DNA from: Candidatus Latescibacterota bacterium
Lineage (GTDB): Bacteria > Latescibacterota > UBA2968 > UBA8231
Reading direction: 5' to 3'
Assembly (NCBI GenBank): GCA_965223905.1
Contig: CBDCXV010000001.1
Span: 1,024,001-1,088,000 of the forward strand
DNA: 64,000 nucleotides
Shown: piece after piece, positions 39,327-48,273 of the stretch
How positions within the stretch are numbered: position 1 is the first letter of the stretch
Layout of the letters: every line of letters begins with the position of its first letter
Program-made: the position numbers and the translations under genes
The notes under the pieces: model-generated
What the model saw: the letters and a program-made list of their open reading frames with translations, nothing else
What the model was told of the DNA's origin: nothing
The model's database searches: none

Positions 39327-40781
39327 CTACCTGTAGCGGGTAATCCTGCCCTCCTGCAGACGTTGCCAGTAATCCTGGAGACAGGCCTTGATTTGCGGAC
39401 TCAGGAGCACGCCGCCGAGGATGTTGGGGAAGGCCATGCCGAGGATCATCATGTCGGTGAATCCAATGATGTTGTCGAGAGCCGTCACGCTGCCGAGGAA
39501 GACGAAAAAAACGAAAATGAAGCGGAAGAGGATAACGGTGGCGGGGCCGAAGAGATACTCCCAGGCGCGTTCGCCGTAATACGACCAGGAGATCATCGTC
39601 GAGTAGGCAAACAGGGTGACGGCCAGGGCCAGAACGTAGCGCGCCCCGGGGATGAAGGACTCGAAGGCCGCCGCGGTCATGCGCGCCCCGACGATGGAGC
39701 CGCCGGAGGACTGGAACTGCGGATCCTGGTAGACGCCGGTCAGCAGGCAGACCAGCGCCGTCATCATGCAGATGACGATGGTGTCGATGAAGGGGCCGAT
39801 CATGGCGACGATCCCCTCCCGCGCCGCTTCGTTCGTCTTGGCAGCCGCGTGCGCGAAGGCCGCGGACCCGAGTCCGGCTTCGTTGGAGAAGGCCGCACGG
39901 CGAATGCCCCAGACCAGGGTGTAGATGAAGCCGCCGCCGACCGCACGCCCGGTGAAGGCGTCTTCGACGATCAGGGCGATCAGGCCCGGCAGCTCGCCGA
40001 TGTGGGCGAGGATGATGAACAGGGAAACGGCGACGTACAACAGGCACATGAACGGCACGATCCGCGAGGTGACGCGGCCGATGCGGCGGATGCCGCCGAT
40101 GATGACGAGGCCGACGAGGAGAGCCATGAGGAGGCCGACCGCCCAGTTGAATTCGCGAAACCCCGGGTGCACGGTTCCGAGCACCTCAAGCGTTTGGTTC
40201 GCCTGGAACATGTTGCCGCCTCCCAGGCTGCCGCCGATGGTCAGCACGGCGAAAAACACCGCCAGGGTACGTCCAAACTCCGGCCAGCCCTTGGCGCCGA
40301 GGCCCTGCTCCAGGTAGTACATCGGACCGCCGGCGATGCGGCCGTCGGGGCGGATGCGACGGTACATCACCGCCAAGGTGCAGGAGGCGAGCTTCGAGGC
40401 CATGCCGAAGAGGGCGGTGATCACCATCCAGAAAACGGCCCCCGGGCCGCCGACGCTGACGGCGATGGCCACTCCGGCGATGTTGCCGAGGCCGATCGTC
40501 GCCGACAGGGCGCTGGTCAGGGCCTGAAAGTGGGATATCTCCCCCGGGTCGGAGGGGTCGTCGTAGCGGCCGCGAATGACGTCGATGGAGTGGCGAAAGG
40601 CACGGATCGTCAGCCAGGAGAAGTAGAAGCTGTAGTAGATGCCGCCGAGTAGCAGGACGGCGACGATAAGGGGCAGGCCGCTGCCGAAATCGGCGAACAG
40701 AAAGAGGTCGAGGACCTCGACGATGCTGCCGAACAGGGCGTCGATGGCGGCGAGCTGCTCCTGAATCCAGGCGTTACTCAT
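39327..40781 (-). CDS. Alanine/glycine:cation symporter (AGCS)
   Basis: ALSATIGLGNIAGVA, GGPGAVFWM, GGPMYY, FSNEAGLGS, GPFIDTIVIC, WSYYGE. Confidence 0.94.
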   Translation of the reverse strand: MSNAWIQEQLAAIDALFGSIVEVLDLFLFADFGSGLPLIVAVLLLGGIYYSFYFSWLTIRAFRHSIDVIRGRYDDPSDPGEISHFQALTSALSATIGLGNIAGVAIAVSVGGPGAVFWMVITALFGMASKLASCTLAVMYRRIRPDGRIAGGPMYYLEQGLGAKGWPEFGRTLAVFFAVLTIGGSLGGGNMFQANQTLEVLGTVHPGFREFNWAVGLLMALLVGLVIIGGIRRIGRVTSRIVPFMCLLYVAVSLFIILAHIGELPGLIALIVEDAFTGRAVGGGFIYTLVWGIRRAAFSNEAGLGSAAFAHAAAKTNEAAREGIVAMIGPFIDTIVICMMTALVCLLTGVYQDPQFQSSGGSIVGARMTAAAFESFIPGARYVLALAVTLFAYSTMISWSYYGERAWEYLFGPATVILFRFIFVFFVFLGSVTALDNIIGFTDMMILGMAFPNILGGVLLSPQIKACLQDYWQRLQEGRITRYR

Positions 40782-40966
40782 GGTCCAACCTTAACCATGG
40801 ACGAAGCTGATCACAAATCGGGGTATATCTCCGGGAATAGCAGGCCAGGGGGAGGGCGCCTGCAACCCGGTTGGCACGTTGAAAGGCACTGCCCTGCTCC
40901 GGCTGACCCTGGCTCCCGGTATGACTGCCAACGAGCTCCGGGGCCGGGAGAGGCAAGGCATCCACC

Positions 40967-41683
40967 TTAAGGGCTCCTTCCTTCAGCAGGCATCCATTCG
41001 GGCAACGCGCCCTCGATCCTGACGGCGAGCCGTTCCGGTCTGGCGGCGTCGGACTCGAGGGCGCGCTCGATCACGAGCAACGCCATCGGGTCGCGGGGCT
41101 GGCGCCCTTCCCGCATCGCCGCGAAGAAACGCAGGTTCTCGTCCTCGACCACGTCCGGTTCCGGTGAAGCTCCGCTGCAGATCAGCAGGCAGACCTCGAG
41201 GCCGCGGCCCTTCGCCGCCTCGAGGGTGAGAGCGGTGTGATTCAGCGTCCCGAGGCCGGGACGGGCGACGACGGCCAGGGCGGCGTTGAGGCGCAGGGCG
41301 AGGTCGGCGTAATCCCGCTTCTCATCGATCGGCACCAGGAGCCCCCCCGAGCCCTCCACCAGGGTGAGGTCGTGGGACGCGGCTACGGACTCGCACTGCC
41401 GCACCAGGGTCTCGAAATCGAGCCGCCGCCCGGCGCGGCGCGCCGCGATCAGGGGCGCCAGCGGCTCCGGGAAAGAGGCCAGCGTCCCCAGGGTCACGTC
41501 CATGCCATGGAGGGCGGCGCGATAGAAGGCCTCGTCGCCGTCGACCTCTGGATCGGCGCCGGTCTGGACCGCCTTTATCAGGGCAACCCTTCCCGCTTGC
41601 GACGCTTTCCACGCCAGCCAGGCGGAAGCGACCGTTTTGCCGACGCCAGTGTCGGTCCCGGTCACGAGAACGACCCTACCCAC
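40967..41683 (-). CDS. bioD: Dethiobiotin synthetase
   Basis: TGTDTGVGKT, KAVQTG, VEGSGGLLVP, LGTLNHT. Confidence 0.95.
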   Translation of the reverse strand: MGRVVLVTGTDTGVGKTVASAWLAWKASQAGRVALIKAVQTGADPEVDGDEAFYRAALHGMDVTLGTLASFPEPLAPLIAARRAGRRLDFETLVRQCESVAASHDLTLVEGSGGLLVPIDEKRDYADLALRLNAALAVVARPGLGTLNHTALTLEAAKGRGLEVCLLICSGASPEPDVVEDENLRFFAAMREGRQPRDPMALLVIERALESDAARPERLAVRIEGALPEWMPAEGRSP

Positions 41684-42857
41684 GGAAGGATTCCATCGCT
41701 GCGACGACCTGCTTCAGGTGCTTCTCTTCGTGAGCCGCGGTGACCCCGAAGCGGATCCGCGACGTCCCCCGGGGAACCGCAGGAGGCCGCACCGCCCGCG
41801 CCAGGATGCCGTGCGCCTTGAGATGCTCCTCGGCGGCGAGGGCGGCGGCTGGCCTGCCGAGGAGCACCGGCACGATCTGCGAGGCGGAGCAGGAGGGTGG
41901 GTAGCCCAGTCGCATCAGCCCGGAGCGCAAGGTTGCCCCGAGGTCGAGGACCCGCTTCCGTCGCCACGGCTCCTCCCGCGCGACATCGAGGGCGGCGGCG
42001 GCCGCGGCCACCGCCGACGGCGGCAGCGCGGTATCGAAGATGAAGGTGCGGGCGCGGTCGATGAGGAAGTCGACGAGGGCCTGGTCGCCGGCGACGAAGC
42101 CGCCGATCGAGCCCAGCGCCTTCGAAAGCGTACCGGTGACGGCGGCCGGGGCGTCGAGATCGAAGCGTCCCAGGAGACCGGAGCCGCCGCCGAAAAGGCC
42201 GATGGCGTGGGCCTCGTCGACGACCAGCATGGCATGGTGGCGCGACGCTGTTTTTCCCAGGGCATCGAGGGGGGCCAGGTCGCCGTCCATGCTGAAGACG
42301 CTCTCGGTCGCGACCAGGCGGCGGCGGGCATGGGTCCGCCGCAGGAGATCGTCGAGGCGGCCGGCGTCGTTGTGCGGGTAGGGGAGAGCGGCCGCTCCCG
42401 ACAGCCTGGCGCCGTCGATGATCGAGGCGTGGGCGCGCTCGTCGTAGAAGATCGCGTCCCCGCTTCCGGCCAGGGCGGAGAGCAGGCCGAGGTTGGCCAT
42501 GTATCCCGAGCTGAACAGCAGGGAGGACTGCCGCCCTGTCATCCGCGCCAGCCGTTCCTGCAGGTCCTCGTGAAGCGGAGTGGAGCCGTGCAGCAGCCGT
42601 GCCGACCCCGCCCCGGCGCCGAAGCGGCCGGCGGCCTCGGCGCCGGCGGCGATCACATCCGGGTGTGACGCAAGCCCCAGGTAATCGTTCGAGGTGAACA
42701 GGACGTATTCGCGGCCGGCGAGGCAGGCCCGGACCCCGGCGCGGCTCTCCGGAGTCACCACCGACCGCCGCAGACCGAGCCGCTCGAGACGGTTGCGCTC
42801 CGAGCGCAGGAAGTCAGCCCAGGGTTGTGGTGGACCGGGCGACGCAGTCGAGCCCAT
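41676..42857 (-). CDS. bioF: 8-amino-7-oxononanoate synthase
   Basis: SNDYLGL, SGYMANL, HASIIDG, ESVFSMDGD, DEAHA, TLSKALG. Confidence 0.95.
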   Translation of the reverse strand: MGSTASPGPPQPWADFLRSERNRLERLGLRRSVVTPESRAGVRACLAGREYVLFTSNDYLGLASHPDVIAAGAEAAGRFGAGAGSARLLHGSTPLHEDLQERLARMTGRQSSLLFSSGYMANLGLLSALAGSGDAIFYDERAHASIIDGARLSGAAALPYPHNDAGRLDDLLRRTHARRRLVATESVFSMDGDLAPLDALGKTASRHHAMLVVDEAHAIGLFGGGSGLLGRFDLDAPAAVTGTLSKALGSIGGFVAGDQALVDFLIDRARTFIFDTALPPSAVAAAAAALDVAREEPWRRKRVLDLGATLRSGLMRLGYPPSCSASQIVPVLLGRPAAALAAEEHLKAHGILARAVRPPAVPRGTSRIRFGVTAAHEEKHLKQVVAAMESFRG

Positions 42858-44166
42858 ACCTCACCGCCTCGCAGATCTGCGCGAGCTCGTTCTCTTCGAT
42901 GGAAAGGGGGGGCATCACCACGACGGTGTCCCCGAGGGGCCGCACGAAGACGCCGCGGTCCCGCGCCCTCATGCAGGCCTTCCACCCCGCCTGCTCAGAA
43001 GCGGGCAGCGACCGTTTGGTGGTGCGGTCGGCGACGATATCGACCGCGGCCATCAACCCCTGCTGGCGAATCTCACCTGCCAGGGGATGCTCGCCGAGCA
43101 CGTCGCGCAGGTTCTCGCCGAGGAAGGAGGCGCGCCTGGCGACCCGCGCGAGGACAGGCTCGCGCTCGAAGATATCGAGACTCGCCAGGGCCGCGGCGCA
43201 GGCGATCGGGTTTCCCCCGTAGGTATGCCCGTGGTAGAGCGTCTTGCCATAGTCGTCCGTATCGTGAAAGGCGTCGTACACCCGCTCGCTAGCCACCGTT
43301 GCCGAGAGGGGCAGGCAGCCGCCGCTGATCCCCTTGCCCAACACCATGATGTCGGGGGTTACTCCTTCGAGGTCGCAGGCGAACATGGCGCCGGTTTTTC
43401 CGAAGCCGGTGGCCACTTCGTCGGCGATGAGCAGCAGATCATGTGAACGGCAGAGGTCGGCGACAAGGCGGAGGTGGCCTTCCGGGGCGACGATCATTCC
43501 CGCCGCACCCTGGACCCGCGGCTCGACGACCACCGCGGCGATCTCCCCGGCGCGCGCCGCGAGGAGACGCTCCAGCGAACCGACGCAGGCGAGGCTGCAG
43601 CCGCTTTCCGGCAAACAGAGGGAACAGCTGAGGGCGTGCGGATTGGCAAACCGCAACGGCTCGAACAGCGCGGCCTCGTACGGCTTGCGGAAGGGACCGT
43701 CGCTCCCCAGCGACGCAGCACCGAGGGTATCGCCGTGGTACGCCATCTCCATTGCGGCGAAGCGGCGGCGCTCGGGCCGGCCGCTGTTGACCCAGAACTG
43801 GAGCGCCATCTTGAGCGCCACCTCGACGGCGCTGGCGCCGTCGGAGCTGTAGAAGAAACGGGTCAGCCCTTTGGGGACGTGGGCGGCGAGCCGCTCCGTG
43901 AGCTCGATCGCCGGGGTATGCCCGGCGCCGAGAAGGGTGCTGTGTTGCAGCCGCTCCGCCTGGCGCCTGATCGCCTCGACGATGTGCGGATGCCCGTGGC
44001 CGTGAACGATCGCCCAGAGCGAGGCCACGCCGTCGATGTACTCACGGCCGTCCCTGTCGATGAGGCGGTTGCCCTCGGCGCGGTCGACGATCAGCCTTGG
44101 CTCGCTGTCGTAGCGAGCCATCGGGGTGAAGGCGTTCCAGATGCCAGCCGGGTGCTCTCCAGTCAC
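42814..44166 (-). CDS. bioA: Adenosylmethionine-8-amino-7-oxononanoate aminotransferase
   Basis: GTG 44166 overlaps the bioB stop. IDGVASLW, GASAVEVALKMA, YHGDT, DEVATGFG, GKGISGG, HGHTYGGNP. Confidence 0.93.
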   Translation of the reverse strand: MTGEHPAGIWNAFTPMARYDSEPRLIVDRAEGNRLIDRDGREYIDGVASLWAIVHGHGHPHIVEAIRRQAERLQHSTLLGAGHTPAIELTERLAAHVPKGLTRFFYSSDGASAVEVALKMALQFWVNSGRPERRRFAAMEMAYHGDTLGAASLGSDGPFRKPYEAALFEPLRFANPHALSCSLCLPESGCSLACVGSLERLLAARAGEIAAVVVEPRVQGAAGMIVAPEGHLRLVADLCRSHDLLLIADEVATGFGKTGAMFACDLEGVTPDIMVLGKGISGGCLPLSATVASERVYDAFHDTDDYGKTLYHGHTYGGNPIACAAALASLDIFEREPVLARVARRASFLGENLRDVLGEHPLAGEIRQQGLMAAVDIVADRTTKRSLPASEQAGWKACMRARDRGVFVRPLGDTVVVMPPLSIEENELAQICEAVRYGLDCVARSTTTLG

Positions 44167-45155
44167 GCCTCTTCGACCTCGAACCCCATGTCCTCGATCA
44201 TCTGCAGCGCCTCCCTGGTGCCCTGACCAGGGGTGGTGAGGTAGCCCTCGACGAAAATCGAGTTCGCCGCGTACAGCGCCAGCGGCTGCAGCGACCGCAG
44301 GTGCAGCTCGCGCCCGCCGGCGACGCGGATCTCGCGGTGGGGATGCAGCAGACGCGCCAGGCAGAGGATCCGCAGGCAGTGGAGGGGGGTCAGCCTCCAC
44401 GTCCCCTCGAGCGGTGTGCCGGAGATGGGATGGAGGAAGTTGACCGGTATCGACCGCGGATCGAGGTCGCGGAGCGCCATGAGGACCTCGATCACGTCCT
44501 CGTCCGTTTCGCCCATACCGAAGATCGCACCGCTGCAGAGGTCGAGCCCGGCCTTGCGCGCGGCCTGCAGGGTCTTCACCCGGTCGCTGTAGCCGTGGGT
44601 GGTGACGATGCTGGGAGTGAACCGCTCGCTGGTATTCAGGTTGTGGTTCAGCTGGTCGACCCCGGCTTCCTTCAGCGCCCGGGCTTTCTCCTCGTCGAGC
44701 AGTCCGACACAGGCGCATATCCCGATATCGACCTCGTCGCGGATGTTGCGCACGGCGTCGGCCAGGTATTCCACCTCGCGCCAGGATGCCCCCCGTCCGC
44801 TTGTGACGATGCAGAAACGCTTGGCCCGCGAGCGCTTGGCTGCGCGCGCCTCTTCGAGCAGCTGCTCCTGGCTCACCATGGGGTATTTCTCGATGGCCGC
44901 CTCCGAGACCCGCGATTGCGAGCAGTAGCCGCAGTCCTCGGGACAGAGACCGCTTTTGGCGTTCATCAGGACATGCAGGTGCACCTTGTCGCCACAGAAG
45001 CGGCGGCGCACCCGGTAGGTCTCGGCGAGCAGGGCGGGAACCTCGCTGTCCGGGGAGCCGAGAACCGCGGCGCACTCGGCGTGCGTCAGTGGGTCGCCGG
45101 CGATCGCCTTGTCAGCGAGAGCTGGGAAGCCGGGAACGGTGGAAGTCGTAACCAT
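44163..45155 (-). CDS. bioB: Biotin synthase
   Basis: Radical SAM CPEDCGYCSQS, NHNLNT, CSGAIFGMGE, PVNFL, IRVAGGR, YLTT. Confidence 0.96.
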   Translation of the reverse strand: MVTTSTVPGFPALADKAIAGDPLTHAECAAVLGSPDSEVPALLAETYRVRRRFCGDKVHLHVLMNAKSGLCPEDCGYCSQSRVSEAAIEKYPMVSQEQLLEEARAAKRSRAKRFCIVTSGRGASWREVEYLADAVRNIRDEVDIGICACVGLLDEEKARALKEAGVDQLNHNLNTSERFTPSIVTTHGYSDRVKTLQAARKAGLDLCSGAIFGMGETDEDVIEVLMALRDLDPRSIPVNFLHPISGTPLEGTWRLTPLHCLRILCLARLLHPHREIRVAGGRELHLRSLQPLALYAANSIFVEGYLTTPGQGTREALQMIEDMGFEVEEA

Positions 45156-45156
45156 T

Positions 45157-45201
45157 TAAAAGTGTGTCCTGTAAAGTGTGTCCTGTAAAAGTGTGTCCTG
45201 T
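45157..45201. repeat. Triple tandem repeat TAAA(A)GTGTGTCCTG directly upstream of bioB
   Basis: Units at 45157-45171, 45172-45185 and 45186-45200, differing only in A-run length. Confidence 0.92.
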
Positions 45202-45232
45202 TGGTAATGTTGCAGGATATGGCGGGATGCCT

Positions 45233-46468
45233 TCAGGGCGCGGGGGCCGAAAAGAGGAGGACGGCGTTGTGGCCGCCAAAGCCGAACGAGTTCGACAGCA
45301 CCCGTGCGAGCGGCCTTCGGAGCGCCTCGCCGCGCACGCAGGCGATCCCCATTCCGTCGATGCTCTCGCAATTGATCGTCGGCGGGACGGACCCCGACTC
45401 GACAGCCATGACCGCGGCGACCGCCTGGGCCGCTCCTGAGGCGGCGAGCATGTGCCCGGTCATCGACTTGATCGCGGTCACCGGGATGGTGCCGAGCGCT
45501 TCCCCGAGCGAGGCGTCCAAGGCGCGAACCTCGGCGTCGTCGCCGGCCCGGGTACCGGCTGCGTGGGCGAAGATCGCGCTGACCTCGCGAGGTCCGGTTC
45601 CGGACTTCTCCAGTGCCCGGGCGATGGCCTTCGCCGCGGCCGCACCGTTCGGTTCCGGCCGCGTTTCGTGCACCCCGTCGGTAGTTGCGCCGTACCCGGA
45701 GAGTTCGGCGTAGACGCGGGCGCCCCGTCTTCTGGCATGATCCAGCTCCTCGAGAACGAGGACTGCGGCACCCTCGGCGAGCACGAATCCGTCCCGGTCG
45801 CGGTCGAAAGGGCGGCAGGCACGCTGCGGCTCGGCGTTGCGCCGCGACAGCGCTCCGAGGGCGTGGTCGCCGGCCAGGGTCAACGGCGTTATGCAGGCCT
45901 CGGCGGCGCCGGCGACCATCACGTCGGCATCCCCCCTGCGGATGACCTCGGAAGCCTCGCCGAGGGCGTGGCCGCCGGTGGCGCACGCGGAGGAGAGGGC
46001 GAAGCCAGGGCCGCGGAGGTCGAGCAGCATCGCCGCCTGGGCAGCGGCCATGTTGTTGAGCATGCGCGGGATCAGCAAGGGACTCGCGGCTTTCGGACCG
46101 AGGATCGGACCGAGGGCGGCCGCGGCCTGGAGGGTGGTGTTCTCGCCGCCGTGGCTTGAGCCGAGCACGATCCCCGACTCGTCCGGATCGTGCGCTTCGA
46201 TTCCGGCGTCGCGCCAGGCCTGCAACGCCGCTCCGACCCCGAACAGGGCGTACCTGTCGAGGCGCCGGGCCCGCCTGCGGTCGATTTCGGCAGGCAGCGT
46301 GAATCCCGTGACCTCGCCGGCGATGCGCACCGGGAAGGCCCCGGCATCGAAGAGGGTGATCGGACCGACCCCTGACTGCCCGGCGCACAGTCGGTCCCAG
46401 AAACGGGCGGCACCGGAACCGAGTGGAGTCACAGCGCCCAGACCTGTGACGACGACCCGCCGGCTCAT
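45233..46468 (-). CDS. FabF-like beta-ketoacyl-ACP synthase in the biotin operon
   Basis: ATG 46468 (MSRRVVVTGLG). SACATG, RPFDRDRDGFVLAEGA, FAHAAGT, KSMTGH, SNSFGFGGHN. Confidence 0.92.
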   Translation of the reverse strand: MSRRVVVTGLGAVTPLGSGAARFWDRLCAGQSGVGPITLFDAGAFPVRIAGEVTGFTLPAEIDRRRARRLDRYALFGVGAALQAWRDAGIEAHDPDESGIVLGSSHGGENTTLQAAAALGPILGPKAASPLLIPRMLNNMAAAQAAMLLDLRGPGFALSSACATGGHALGEASEVIRRGDADVMVAGAAEACITPLTLAGDHALGALSRRNAEPQRACRPFDRDRDGFVLAEGAAVLVLEELDHARRRGARVYAELSGYGATTDGVHETRPEPNGAAAAKAIARALEKSGTGPREVSAIFAHAAGTRAGDDAEVRALDASLGEALGTIPVTAIKSMTGHMLAASGAAQAVAAVMAVESGSVPPTINCESIDGMGIACVRGEALRRPLARVLSNSFGFGGHNAVLLFSAPAP

Positions 46469-46826
46469 GGTGTCACTGCCTCTGGTGCCTCCTGCCGGCC
46501 AACCCGGATGCGGCAACGGAAAGCGAGGCATTCCCGCGCAACGGTTCGGGGCGAAGCGTTTCAACGCCCTTCAGGGGGTACGCGCCCCAGGCAGAATCCC
46601 TGCGCCGCCCCGGGTCGGCCGGGGGGCCGGAGCCCTGGGGAGTGAAGCCCTCGGCACTGTGGCCGCGGTGGCGGCTGCGAACCGGAGCAGACCTGCGGAA
46701 TCCTTCGACGGATCGATCAGACCTTTTGGCAGCTCGGTTTTTTCCGGTCATACCGAGAATATACACCGGCTGAAGGAGTTCTGTTCGCCGGTAAACGGGG
46801 GCCGCCGGAGAGGCCGACCATCCCGC

Positions 46827-46855
46827 TTGACAGCCTGATGATGCCGCCTTAGCCT
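46827..46855 (+). promoter_or_regulatory. Sigma70-type promoter of the nqr operon
   Basis: TTGACA, 17 bp spacer, TAGCCT, 65 bp upstream of nqrA. Confidence 0.55.
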
Positions 46856-46866
46856 GTAAGGCTTGA

Positions 46867-48272
<1,406 letters not shown>

Positions 48273-48273
<1 letters not shown>

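Follow-up and report, generated by a model that had tools for sequence, protein, structure and literature searches.

A divergent FabF-type synthase encoded with biotin genes as a candidate enzyme for making the pimelate moiety

The stretch of DNA analysed here (the window) comprises 64,000 nucleotides of contig CBDCXV010000001.1 from a Candidatus Latescibacterota bacterium (assembly GCA_965223905.1, positions 1,024,001 to 1,088,000), and contains a biotin operon that is led by a gene for a FabF-type β-ketoacyl-ACP (acyl carrier protein) synthase, which we term KASbio. KASbio (protein P0001, 411 aa) is encoded on the minus strand at 45233-46468, matches the N- and C-terminal ketoacyl-synthase domains of Pfam (PF00109 and PF02801) and belongs to a distinct subfamily linked to bio genes. 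A 77-nt spacer (45156-45232, minus strand) separates it from bioB (biotin synthase, 44163-45155; TIGR00433, 392.8 bits, cut-off 225; Radical_SAM and BATS domains). On the same strand follow bioA (adenosylmethionine-8-amino-7-oxononanoate transaminase, 42814 to ~44166; TIGR00508, 488.8 bits, cut-off 405), bioF (8-amino-7-oxononanoate synthase, 41676-42857; Aminotran_1_2 domain; TIGR00858, 413.8 bits, slightly below the cut-off of 426.45) and bioD (dethiobiotin synthase, 40967-41683; TIGR00347, 127.4 bits, cut-off 83.3). The start of bioA is either a GTG at 44166, in a GTGA overlap with the bioB stop codon, or an ATG at 44121; the reading frames overlap by 44 nt at the bioA-bioF junction and by 8 nt at the bioF-bioD junction. 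The assignment of all four bio genes by NCBIfam and Pfam is unambiguous, and the gene order and identities given in an earlier note on this DNA are thereby borne out. The five genes, overlapping or closely spaced, form one tight operon. From its sequence and genomic context, KASbio is probably a dedicated condensing enzyme of biotin synthesis, extending ω-carboxy acyl chains to 3-ketopimeloyl-ACP without methyl-ester masking.

We compared KASbio with the translation of E. coli K-12 fabF in a MAFFT alignment, and give residues in the literature numbering, which is the translation position minus one. The catalytic residues are all kept, as the earlier note had read by eye, with Cys163 in SACATG, His303 in FAHAAGT, and Lys335 and His340 in KSMTGH; Phe400 is also intact. 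The alignment likewise reproduced the substitutions proposed around the acyl pocket: GSGIGG is replaced by GSSHGG (G107S, I108H), GGFGA by AGDHA (G200A, F202D, G203H) and FFVPST by LLIPRM (F132L, F133L, V134I, S136R, T137M). The AlphaFold2 model of KASbio has a predicted local distance difference test score of 93.7 and a predicted template modelling (TM) score of 0.94. Foldseek superimposed this model onto FabF structures with TM scores of 0.96-0.97 (0.97 for Pseudomonas aeruginosa FabF) and a root mean square deviation of 1.3-1.5 Å, at 42-44% identity. KASbio has the thiolase-fold architecture of ketoacyl synthases (KAS) I and II, with the Cys163-His303-His340 triad, Lys335 and a GFGG loop that includes Phe400. 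Within this architecture, the hydrophobic back gate of Ile108 and Phe202, midway along the acyl pocket, is a His-Asp pair, and polar or charged neighbours are found in Glu111, Arg136, Glu269, Arg271 and Gln349. KASbio scores 454.6 bits against the fabF equivalog model TIGR03150, below the curated cut-off of 493.75, and a Chloroflexota member of the subfamily likewise falls below it (442.6 bits). KASbio does exceed the cut-off of the looser subfamily model NF005589 (442.3 bits versus 387). We found no NCBIfam model specific to the KASbio group, whose proteins, where they have public names, are called only "beta-ketoacyl-ACP synthase II" or "family protein".

A search over 5.8 billion proteins placed His108 and Asp202 together in 85 of the 120 best matches, which are 49-99% identical to P0001. 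The other 35 are mostly ordinary FabFs with Ile108 and Phe202, but they include two fragmentary members and P0047, a variant that falls inside the clade. Phe202 is present in 32 of the 34 matches that have Ile108. Co-variation was counted over 78 full-length members at positions not used to define the group. Ser or Thr at position 107 and Glu111 are present in every member, Arg or Lys at position 136 in 74, Cys193 in 73, Glu269 in 74, Arg or His at position 271 in 75, and Phe301 and Ala304 in 96-97%. Gln349 is found in 77 of the 78 members, versus Glu in all 34 non-members. Relative to E. coli FabF, the near-invariant changes are L111E, S136R, A193C, M269E, S271R, N301F, G304A, S333A and E349Q. 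Three of them (Asn301Phe, Gly304Ala and Glu349Gln) adjoin the catalytic histidines and lysine, at positions where the E. coli residue is near-invariant in ordinary FabFs. Cys163, His303, His340, Lys335, Phe400 and Thr307 are conserved in 78/78 members and the GFGG loop is invariant. E. coli FabF docks ACP through basic residues 65, 68 and 69 (PMC7138838). The basic docking residues are largely retained in the subfamily, with Arg or Lys at position 68 in 75/78 and Arg at position 69 in 71/78.

A FastTree phylogeny was calculated from 82 sequences: 52 of the 86 signature-bearing or in-clade matches, 14 of the ~32 ordinary matches, eight housekeeping FabFs from fetched loci, four Chloroflexota locus proteins, E. 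coli FabF, the two other KAS proteins of the same genome and one synthase from a Desulfobacterota bio cluster. A branch of length 0.30 (SH-like support 0.988) has all 55 subfamily tips on the same side. On this tree, which the earlier note had called for, the homologs with His108 and Asp202 form one clade and the KASbio subfamily is distinct from ordinary FabFs. Wider searches mainly returned generic enzymes. In a pattern scan of genome contigs with P0001 the matches were generic FabFs: identity peaked at 48% among the 80 loci kept, and none of the 12 inspected was a member. A scan of metagenome contigs with the subfamily alignment hit generic motifs (RPFDxxRDGF, GFGGHN), with all 80 loci at most 49% identical, and gave no metagenomic context for a member. 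The best 150 matches of a profile search over 1.84 billion representatives were dominated by multi-domain polyketide synthases, with seven single-domain proteins of ~410 aa listed, so the size of the family is not estimable from it. A protein atlas search returned only generic KAS II clusters. KASbio was found in none of the 301 genomes of the phylum of G705 (titled Pyrinomonadaceae) and in none of five single genomes of other phyla. One protein from genome G346 (locus L138), 50% identical to P0001 (2.8e-117), was rejected as a member and excluded from the linkage count, since it has none of the signature residues and groups with ordinary FabFs.

The window's own phylum is termed Gemmatimonadota in our analysis, and one cluster-mate protein is titled Gemmatimonadaceae. 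In this phylum 7 of 168 genomes, from 2 of 49 genera, carry KASbio. It adjoins bioB in all seven holders, and the order KAS-bioB-bioA-bioF-bioD is found in all five that were aligned in full. A sample of 401 Chloroflexota genomes gave four matches, three with the signature, and order-level scans gave 3/39 and 3/151 genomes, for six Chloroflexota holders in total. KASbio is linked to bio genes in four of these six: the order is bioF-A-D-B-KAS in G266, the same with two small open reading frames (ORFs) inserted before the synthase in G550, bioB-KAS on a short contig in G589, and bioF-A-D-KAS with bioB elsewhere in G688. The inserted ORFs of G550 (L136:10641-11523, minus strand; 119 and 169 aa) look by eye like a toxin-antitoxin pair. 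Inspection of ORFs and tblastn, the latter with bio-gene and KASbio queries only and none for ACP, FabG or FabZ, revealed no extra recurrent gene beside KASbio in the linked Chloroflexota loci. Co-occurrence of the homologs with bio genes, another expectation of the earlier note, therefore holds in 11 of 13 genomes from two phyla and in three gene orders, although the 13 holders are relatives rather than independent samples and represent at most three or four independent arrangements.

The operon lies between two conserved flanks that are unrelated to the bio genes. Upstream of KASbio and divergently oriented is the Na+-NQR operon, whose first gene, nqrA (46921-48273, plus strand), matches the Pfam NQRA domains. 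Downstream of the bio genes are a sodium:alanine symporter (39327-40781, minus strand; PF01235, 424.6 bits) and a pyruvate dehydrogenase E1 gene. This symporter-nqrA slot (window 39327-48273; loci L231-L234, L253 and L255) is the bio locus across the family, and nqrA flanks the slot in five other genera. The slot is occupied by a native bio cluster in genera g14, g11, g9 and g3 and by the synthase-led operon in genus g1 and in 4 of 10 genomes of genus g18; in two g18 genomes (G019 and G162) it is a gap of 2.3-2.9 kb without a bio gene. The window's proteins are closer to Chloroflexota copies than to the native copies of their own family: 63-64% versus 36-40% identity for BioB, 46-48% versus 38-41% for BioA, and 47% versus 37-41% for BioF. 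We conclude from these comparisons that the operon moved as a unit and replaced the native bio cluster at the same chromosomal slot; the history of the slot looks like in-place replacement followed by loss. In g18, the genomes with bioB are exactly those with KASbio, four out of 10, and thus the synthase acts like one component of a biotin module gained and lost as a whole.

The intergenic region between KASbio and nqrA (46469-46920) is the presumed promoter region. A promoter and terminator scan found no sigma-70-like site in it, and no recognizable operator or regulator site was found upstream of KASbio, where the only inverted repeats are GC-rich palindromes (46600-46632). Near-identical contigs of 150-250 nt, covering parts of KASbio and bioB (window 44852-46687), were present in three metatranscriptome runs (X10, X12 and X19) of one study, labelled as sponge metagenome. 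One of them (X12 record 19, 157 nt, no differences) spans the spacer at 45098-45254 and reaches just 22 nt into KASbio. This is a weak hint of transcription across the spacer; carry-over of DNA is possible and we do not take it as evidence of co-transcription. The window organism or a close relative may live in the sponge-labelled habitat and express the operon there.

The assembly (7.9 Mb, 11 contigs, 93.6% complete) encodes three KAS I/II homologs: P0001 on contig C1, one on C10 and one on C11. A canonical fabH-fabD-fabG-acpP-fabF cluster lies on C10, and its FabF is 52% identical to E. coli FabF, compared with 42% for P0001. This confirms that a separate housekeeping fabF exists, as the earlier note required. 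KASbio is encoded with the bio genes on C1 and not beside acpP and fabG. In line with the note's statement that the window holds neither gene, a search at E<=1e-8 found no acpP anywhere on the contig that contains the window, and inside the window no FabG match exceeds 150 bits. The third homolog (C11:997585-1000876) shares 34% identity with P0001. About 1 kb away is a FabH-like gene that, at 143.6 bits, does not reach the fabH cut-off; the two appear to belong to a separate lipid or polyketide-type cluster.

Markers of several recognized routes to pimelate were searched for in the whole of this genome. The best match to BioC (TIGR02072) reaches 59 bits over ~118 of 244 model positions (cut-off 185) in an assembly that is 93.6% complete, and 19 generic methyltransferases match the BioC model at 21-59 bits. 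In five other KASbio holders no BioC match exceeds 68 bits. The best match to BioH scores 37.6 bits against a cut-off of 207. Neither BioW nor a cytochrome P450 was matched genome-wide, and neither of the two FabH-like genes is near the bio genes. The earlier note had listed bioC, bioH, bioG, bioW, bioI and bioZ as missing from the window. That list stands for bioC, bioH, bioW and the P450, which are below threshold or without a match, and for FabH-like genes near bio genes; BioG and BioE were not searched, and at this completeness absence is not proven. The native cluster of g14 includes a full-length methyltransferase resembling BioC, which at 120-141 bits stays under the curated cut-off; it occurs in 31/31 genomes of g14 and 5/5 of g13, and none was found in g1 or g18. 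In the g14 cluster, a 228-aa ORF without a Pfam match (L231:5924-6610, plus strand) lies between bioF and this methyltransferase, and could be an unrecognized pimeloyl-ACP methyl ester esterase.

Taken together, we consider it fairly likely that KASbio makes the pimelate moiety through an ω-carboxy acyl-enzyme, in a glutaryl-to-pimeloyl step. A short acyl chain with a free ω-carboxylate, most likely glutaryl (C5), would be loaded onto Cys163. Its carboxylate would be held by His108, Arg136 and Arg271, and acidic residues would position these basic ones. Condensation with malonyl-ACP would yield 3-ketopimeloyl-ACP (C7), which the housekeeping FabG, FabZ and FabI would reduce to pimeloyl-ACP for BioF. 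KASbio may also carry out the preceding round, from malonyl to 3-ketoglutaryl. The KASbio step would in this way replace methylation by BioC and demethylation by BioH. The substrate, the products and the use of housekeeping reductive enzymes are what we infer from the data above. Published structures place the Ile108-Phe202 gate at about C7-C8 of a bound chain, and an I108F mutant is reported to limit chain length; glutaryl methyl ester attached to Cys163 is noted to match a C7 acid in length, which would bring its ester end to this gate (PMC9006962). Residues 265-275 of FabF are described as gating loop 2, which opens together with the GFGG loop to form a transient hydrophobic delivery pocket (PMC7138838). 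In the KASbio subfamily this second loop carries Glu269 and Arg or His at position 271. The segments with Glu111 and Arg136 presumably line the pocket along the dimer interface. The earlier note had read KASbio as a FabF-fold functional analog of BioZ that takes an unmasked ω-carboxyl, and the in-silico checks that were run all came out in favor of this predicted function.

Several points weigh against this proposal. The pocket-facing orientation of Arg136, Glu111, Glu269 and Arg271 is deduced from the alignment and the literature, and the acidic gains Asp202, Glu111 and Glu269 would repel a carboxylate unless paired with basic residues. We did not identify a source of the glutaryl thioester, and no donor gene travels with the KASbio operon. 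The Desulfovibrio-type system, in which a FabF-like synthase also sits among bio genes, needs its own ACP, FabG and FabZ, and none of these is present in the KASbio operon or its flanks. Two of the 13 holders, the Chloroflexota genomes G418 and G654, carry KASbio apart from bio genes. For every member of the subfamily, moreover, the function is one that we infer from sequence. Finally, absence of the recognized routes is weak evidence. The BioB-positive genera g3, g4, g5, g9, g11 and g17 also lack KASbio, a BioC-like match (E<=1e-25) and BioW, and the same is true of the BioB-positive Chloroflexota G374, G275 and G518. In such relatives, either the thresholds miss divergent genes or further pimelate routes exist. 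Because relatives without KASbio likewise show no match to the known routes at these thresholds, we give the absence argument little weight, and the case rests on linkage, co-transfer and the pocket. The bioB-positive relatives without a recognized route belong to both phyla and include loci L232 (G012), L233 (G010), L234 (G004) and L256-L258 (G518, G275 and G374).

One alternative, which differs in the primer, is that KASbio is self-sufficient and iterative: malonyl-ACP would be accepted as primer without decarboxylation and extended from C3 through C5 to C7, as has been proposed for Desulfovibrio, but with housekeeping ACP and reductive enzymes. This would fit an operon without an accessory gene for a glutaryl donor and the retention of the ACP-docking residues, and malonyl-ACP is the sole ω-carboxy acyl-ACP present in every cell. 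The near-invariant Glu349Gln, Asn301Phe and Gly304Ala could also alter the control of decarboxylation. However, a His108/Asp202 gate at about C7-C8 is too distant from the carboxylate of a malonyl group. In addition, Desulfovibrio-type clusters have dedicated ACP, FabG-like and FabZ-like genes (PMC10102598; locus L241), suggesting that housekeeping enzymes do not handle the C5 intermediates. We therefore regard the iterative scheme as unlikely. A more comprehensive picture can be offered tentatively: a single FabF-type enzyme may lead from malonyl-ACP to pimeloyl-ACP, holding unmasked malonyl and then glutaryl on the cysteine by means of a His/Arg/Asp/Glu pocket, borrowing the housekeeping ACP, FabG, FabZ and FabI, and having spread by operon transfer between Chloroflexota and Gemmatimonadota.

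KASbio might instead be an auxiliary elongating synthase for a masked intermediate, with an unrecognized methyltransferase or other masking enzyme encoded elsewhere, and would then boost or channel the two rounds of elongation. The 19 generic methyltransferases could supply such an enzyme, and the sub-cut-off BioC-like gene in the native clusters of sister genera indicates that divergent BioC occurs in the family. However, an ester-ended chain would favor a hydrophobic gate over the His, Asp, Arg and Glu residues of KASbio. Neither a methyltransferase nor a hydrolase accompanies KASbio in any of the 11 linked loci, and none of six holders has a full-length BioC-like match, which makes this explanation very improbable. 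It is very improbable, too, that KASbio is a FabF paralog that acts outside biotin synthesis, for example on a specialized lipid or a polar secondary metabolite, and that it has merely hitch-hiked beside the bio genes through operon transfer. Extra KAS II paralogs are common in bacteria, a third KAS is present on C11 of this genome, and the two unlinked Chloroflexota copies would be expected of such a paralog. The linkage nevertheless recurs in three gene orders and two phyla, the presence or absence of KASbio in g18 tracks bioB exactly, and no other lipid or polyketide gene stands alongside it. An esterase triad of Ser107, His108 and Asp202 was rejected, as adjacent Ser and His have an unlikely geometry and without BioC there is no methyl ester to remove.

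Within biotin synthesis, it is the making of the pimelate moiety that varies among bacteria and is still incompletely understood. A 2025 paper counts four routes, namely BioC-BioH, BioI-BioW, BioZ and BioE (PMC12704756). If the single-enzyme picture from malonyl-ACP to pimeloyl-ACP is correct, one gene would take the place of both BioC and BioH and add another route to these four. KASbio is in any case a minimal, single-gene candidate for such a route that can be tested in E. coli. It would also be an example of a FabF pocket retuned from hydrophobic to charged substrates, which would be useful for the engineering of dicarboxylic acids. The annotation of genes now named β-ketoacyl-ACP synthase II or family protein would be corrected, and biotin prototrophy would be better predicted in uncultured Chloroflexota and Gemmatimonadota.

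Among known systems, the bio cluster of Desulfovibrio vulgaris (DVU2558-2565) resembles the KASbio operon in encoding a FabF-type synthase among bio genes where bioC and bioH are missing. Without biotin, growth depends on its genes resembling those of fatty acid synthesis (Trotter et al. 2023, PMC10102598). They encode FabZ-like, FabG-like, ACP and FabF-like proteins (DVU2560-DVU2563), to which a nitroreductase-like protein (DVU1220) is added. That paper describes the hosts of such clusters as anaerobes of a few phyla, and the cluster has genetic support while its chemistry is unsolved. For comparison we used a Desulfobacteraceae homolog rather than DVU2563; its locus (L241) contains bioB, FabZ-like, FabG-like, ACP-like and nitroreductase-like genes, the synthase, a second FabZ-like gene, bioF and bioD. 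Of the dedicated ACP, FabG-like, two FabZ-like and nitroreductase-like genes, none accompanies KASbio in the window operon or its flanks. The L241 synthase, at 34% identity to KASbio, falls in the tree neither within the KASbio clade nor within that of the housekeeping FabFs. It has Arg136 and Glu111 in common with KASbio, and Tyr202, Arg203 and Lys204 are its own. Unlike KASbio, it retains Glu349 and the AHGTGT motif, and its 105-111 loop contains an insertion. By these residues, a separate lineage appears to have arrived at a polar gate by convergence. Given the Desulfovibrio cluster (PMC10102598), the idea of elongating without methyl esters is thus not new; what is new is the KASbio lineage and its stand-alone form. 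We found no literature description of a FabF-type gene in bio operons of Chloroflexota or Gemmatimonadota, in a search that did not extend to Supplementary Figure S3 of PMC10102598, where the distribution of the Desulfovibrio type may bear on the reach of this statement.

BioZ, which is encoded in alpha-proteobacterial bio operons, is a KAS III (FabH-type) synthase (Hu and Cronan 2020, PMC7645780; Zhang et al. 2021, PMC8024396; PMC12625853). As PMC7645780 reports, this one condensing enzyme and the type II fatty acid synthesis (FAS II) of E. coli suffice to bypass bioC and bioH. Its glutaryl-CoA substrate is described as being made by CaiB from lysine catabolism. KASbio is similar in being a single condensing enzyme in a bio operon, distinct from a housekeeping paralog in a fab cluster. 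The logic by which BioZ is reported to extend an ω-carboxy primer with malonyl-ACP, leaving completion to the host FAS II, is the logic proposed for KASbio. The two differ in fold, as BioZ has the FabH fold with a Cys-His-Asn triad, whereas KASbio has the FabF fold with Cys-His-His-Lys and matches KAS II models. By family habit KASbio would use acyl-ACP primers, in place of glutaryl-CoA. The specificity of BioZ is ascribed to a lid loop and Ala317 in a mostly hydrophobic tunnel, in contrast to the overtly charged gate of KASbio. The polar pocket that the earlier note attributed to BioZ is accordingly correct in part: two serines hydrogen-bond the carboxylate, but the glutaryl chain lies in the tunnel's hydrophobic bottom (PMC12625853).

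With the housekeeping FabFs of E. coli and P. aeruginosa, KASbio has in common the fold, the catalytic residues, the GFGG gating loop and the basic ACP-docking patch. It departs from them in the His-Asp replacement of the Ile108-Phe202 gate, in missing the TIGR03150 cut-off and in its genomic place with the bio genes. On the strength of these comparisons, KASbio is most likely a FabF-fold enzyme that, standing alone, is the counterpart of both BioZ and the Desulfovibrio module.

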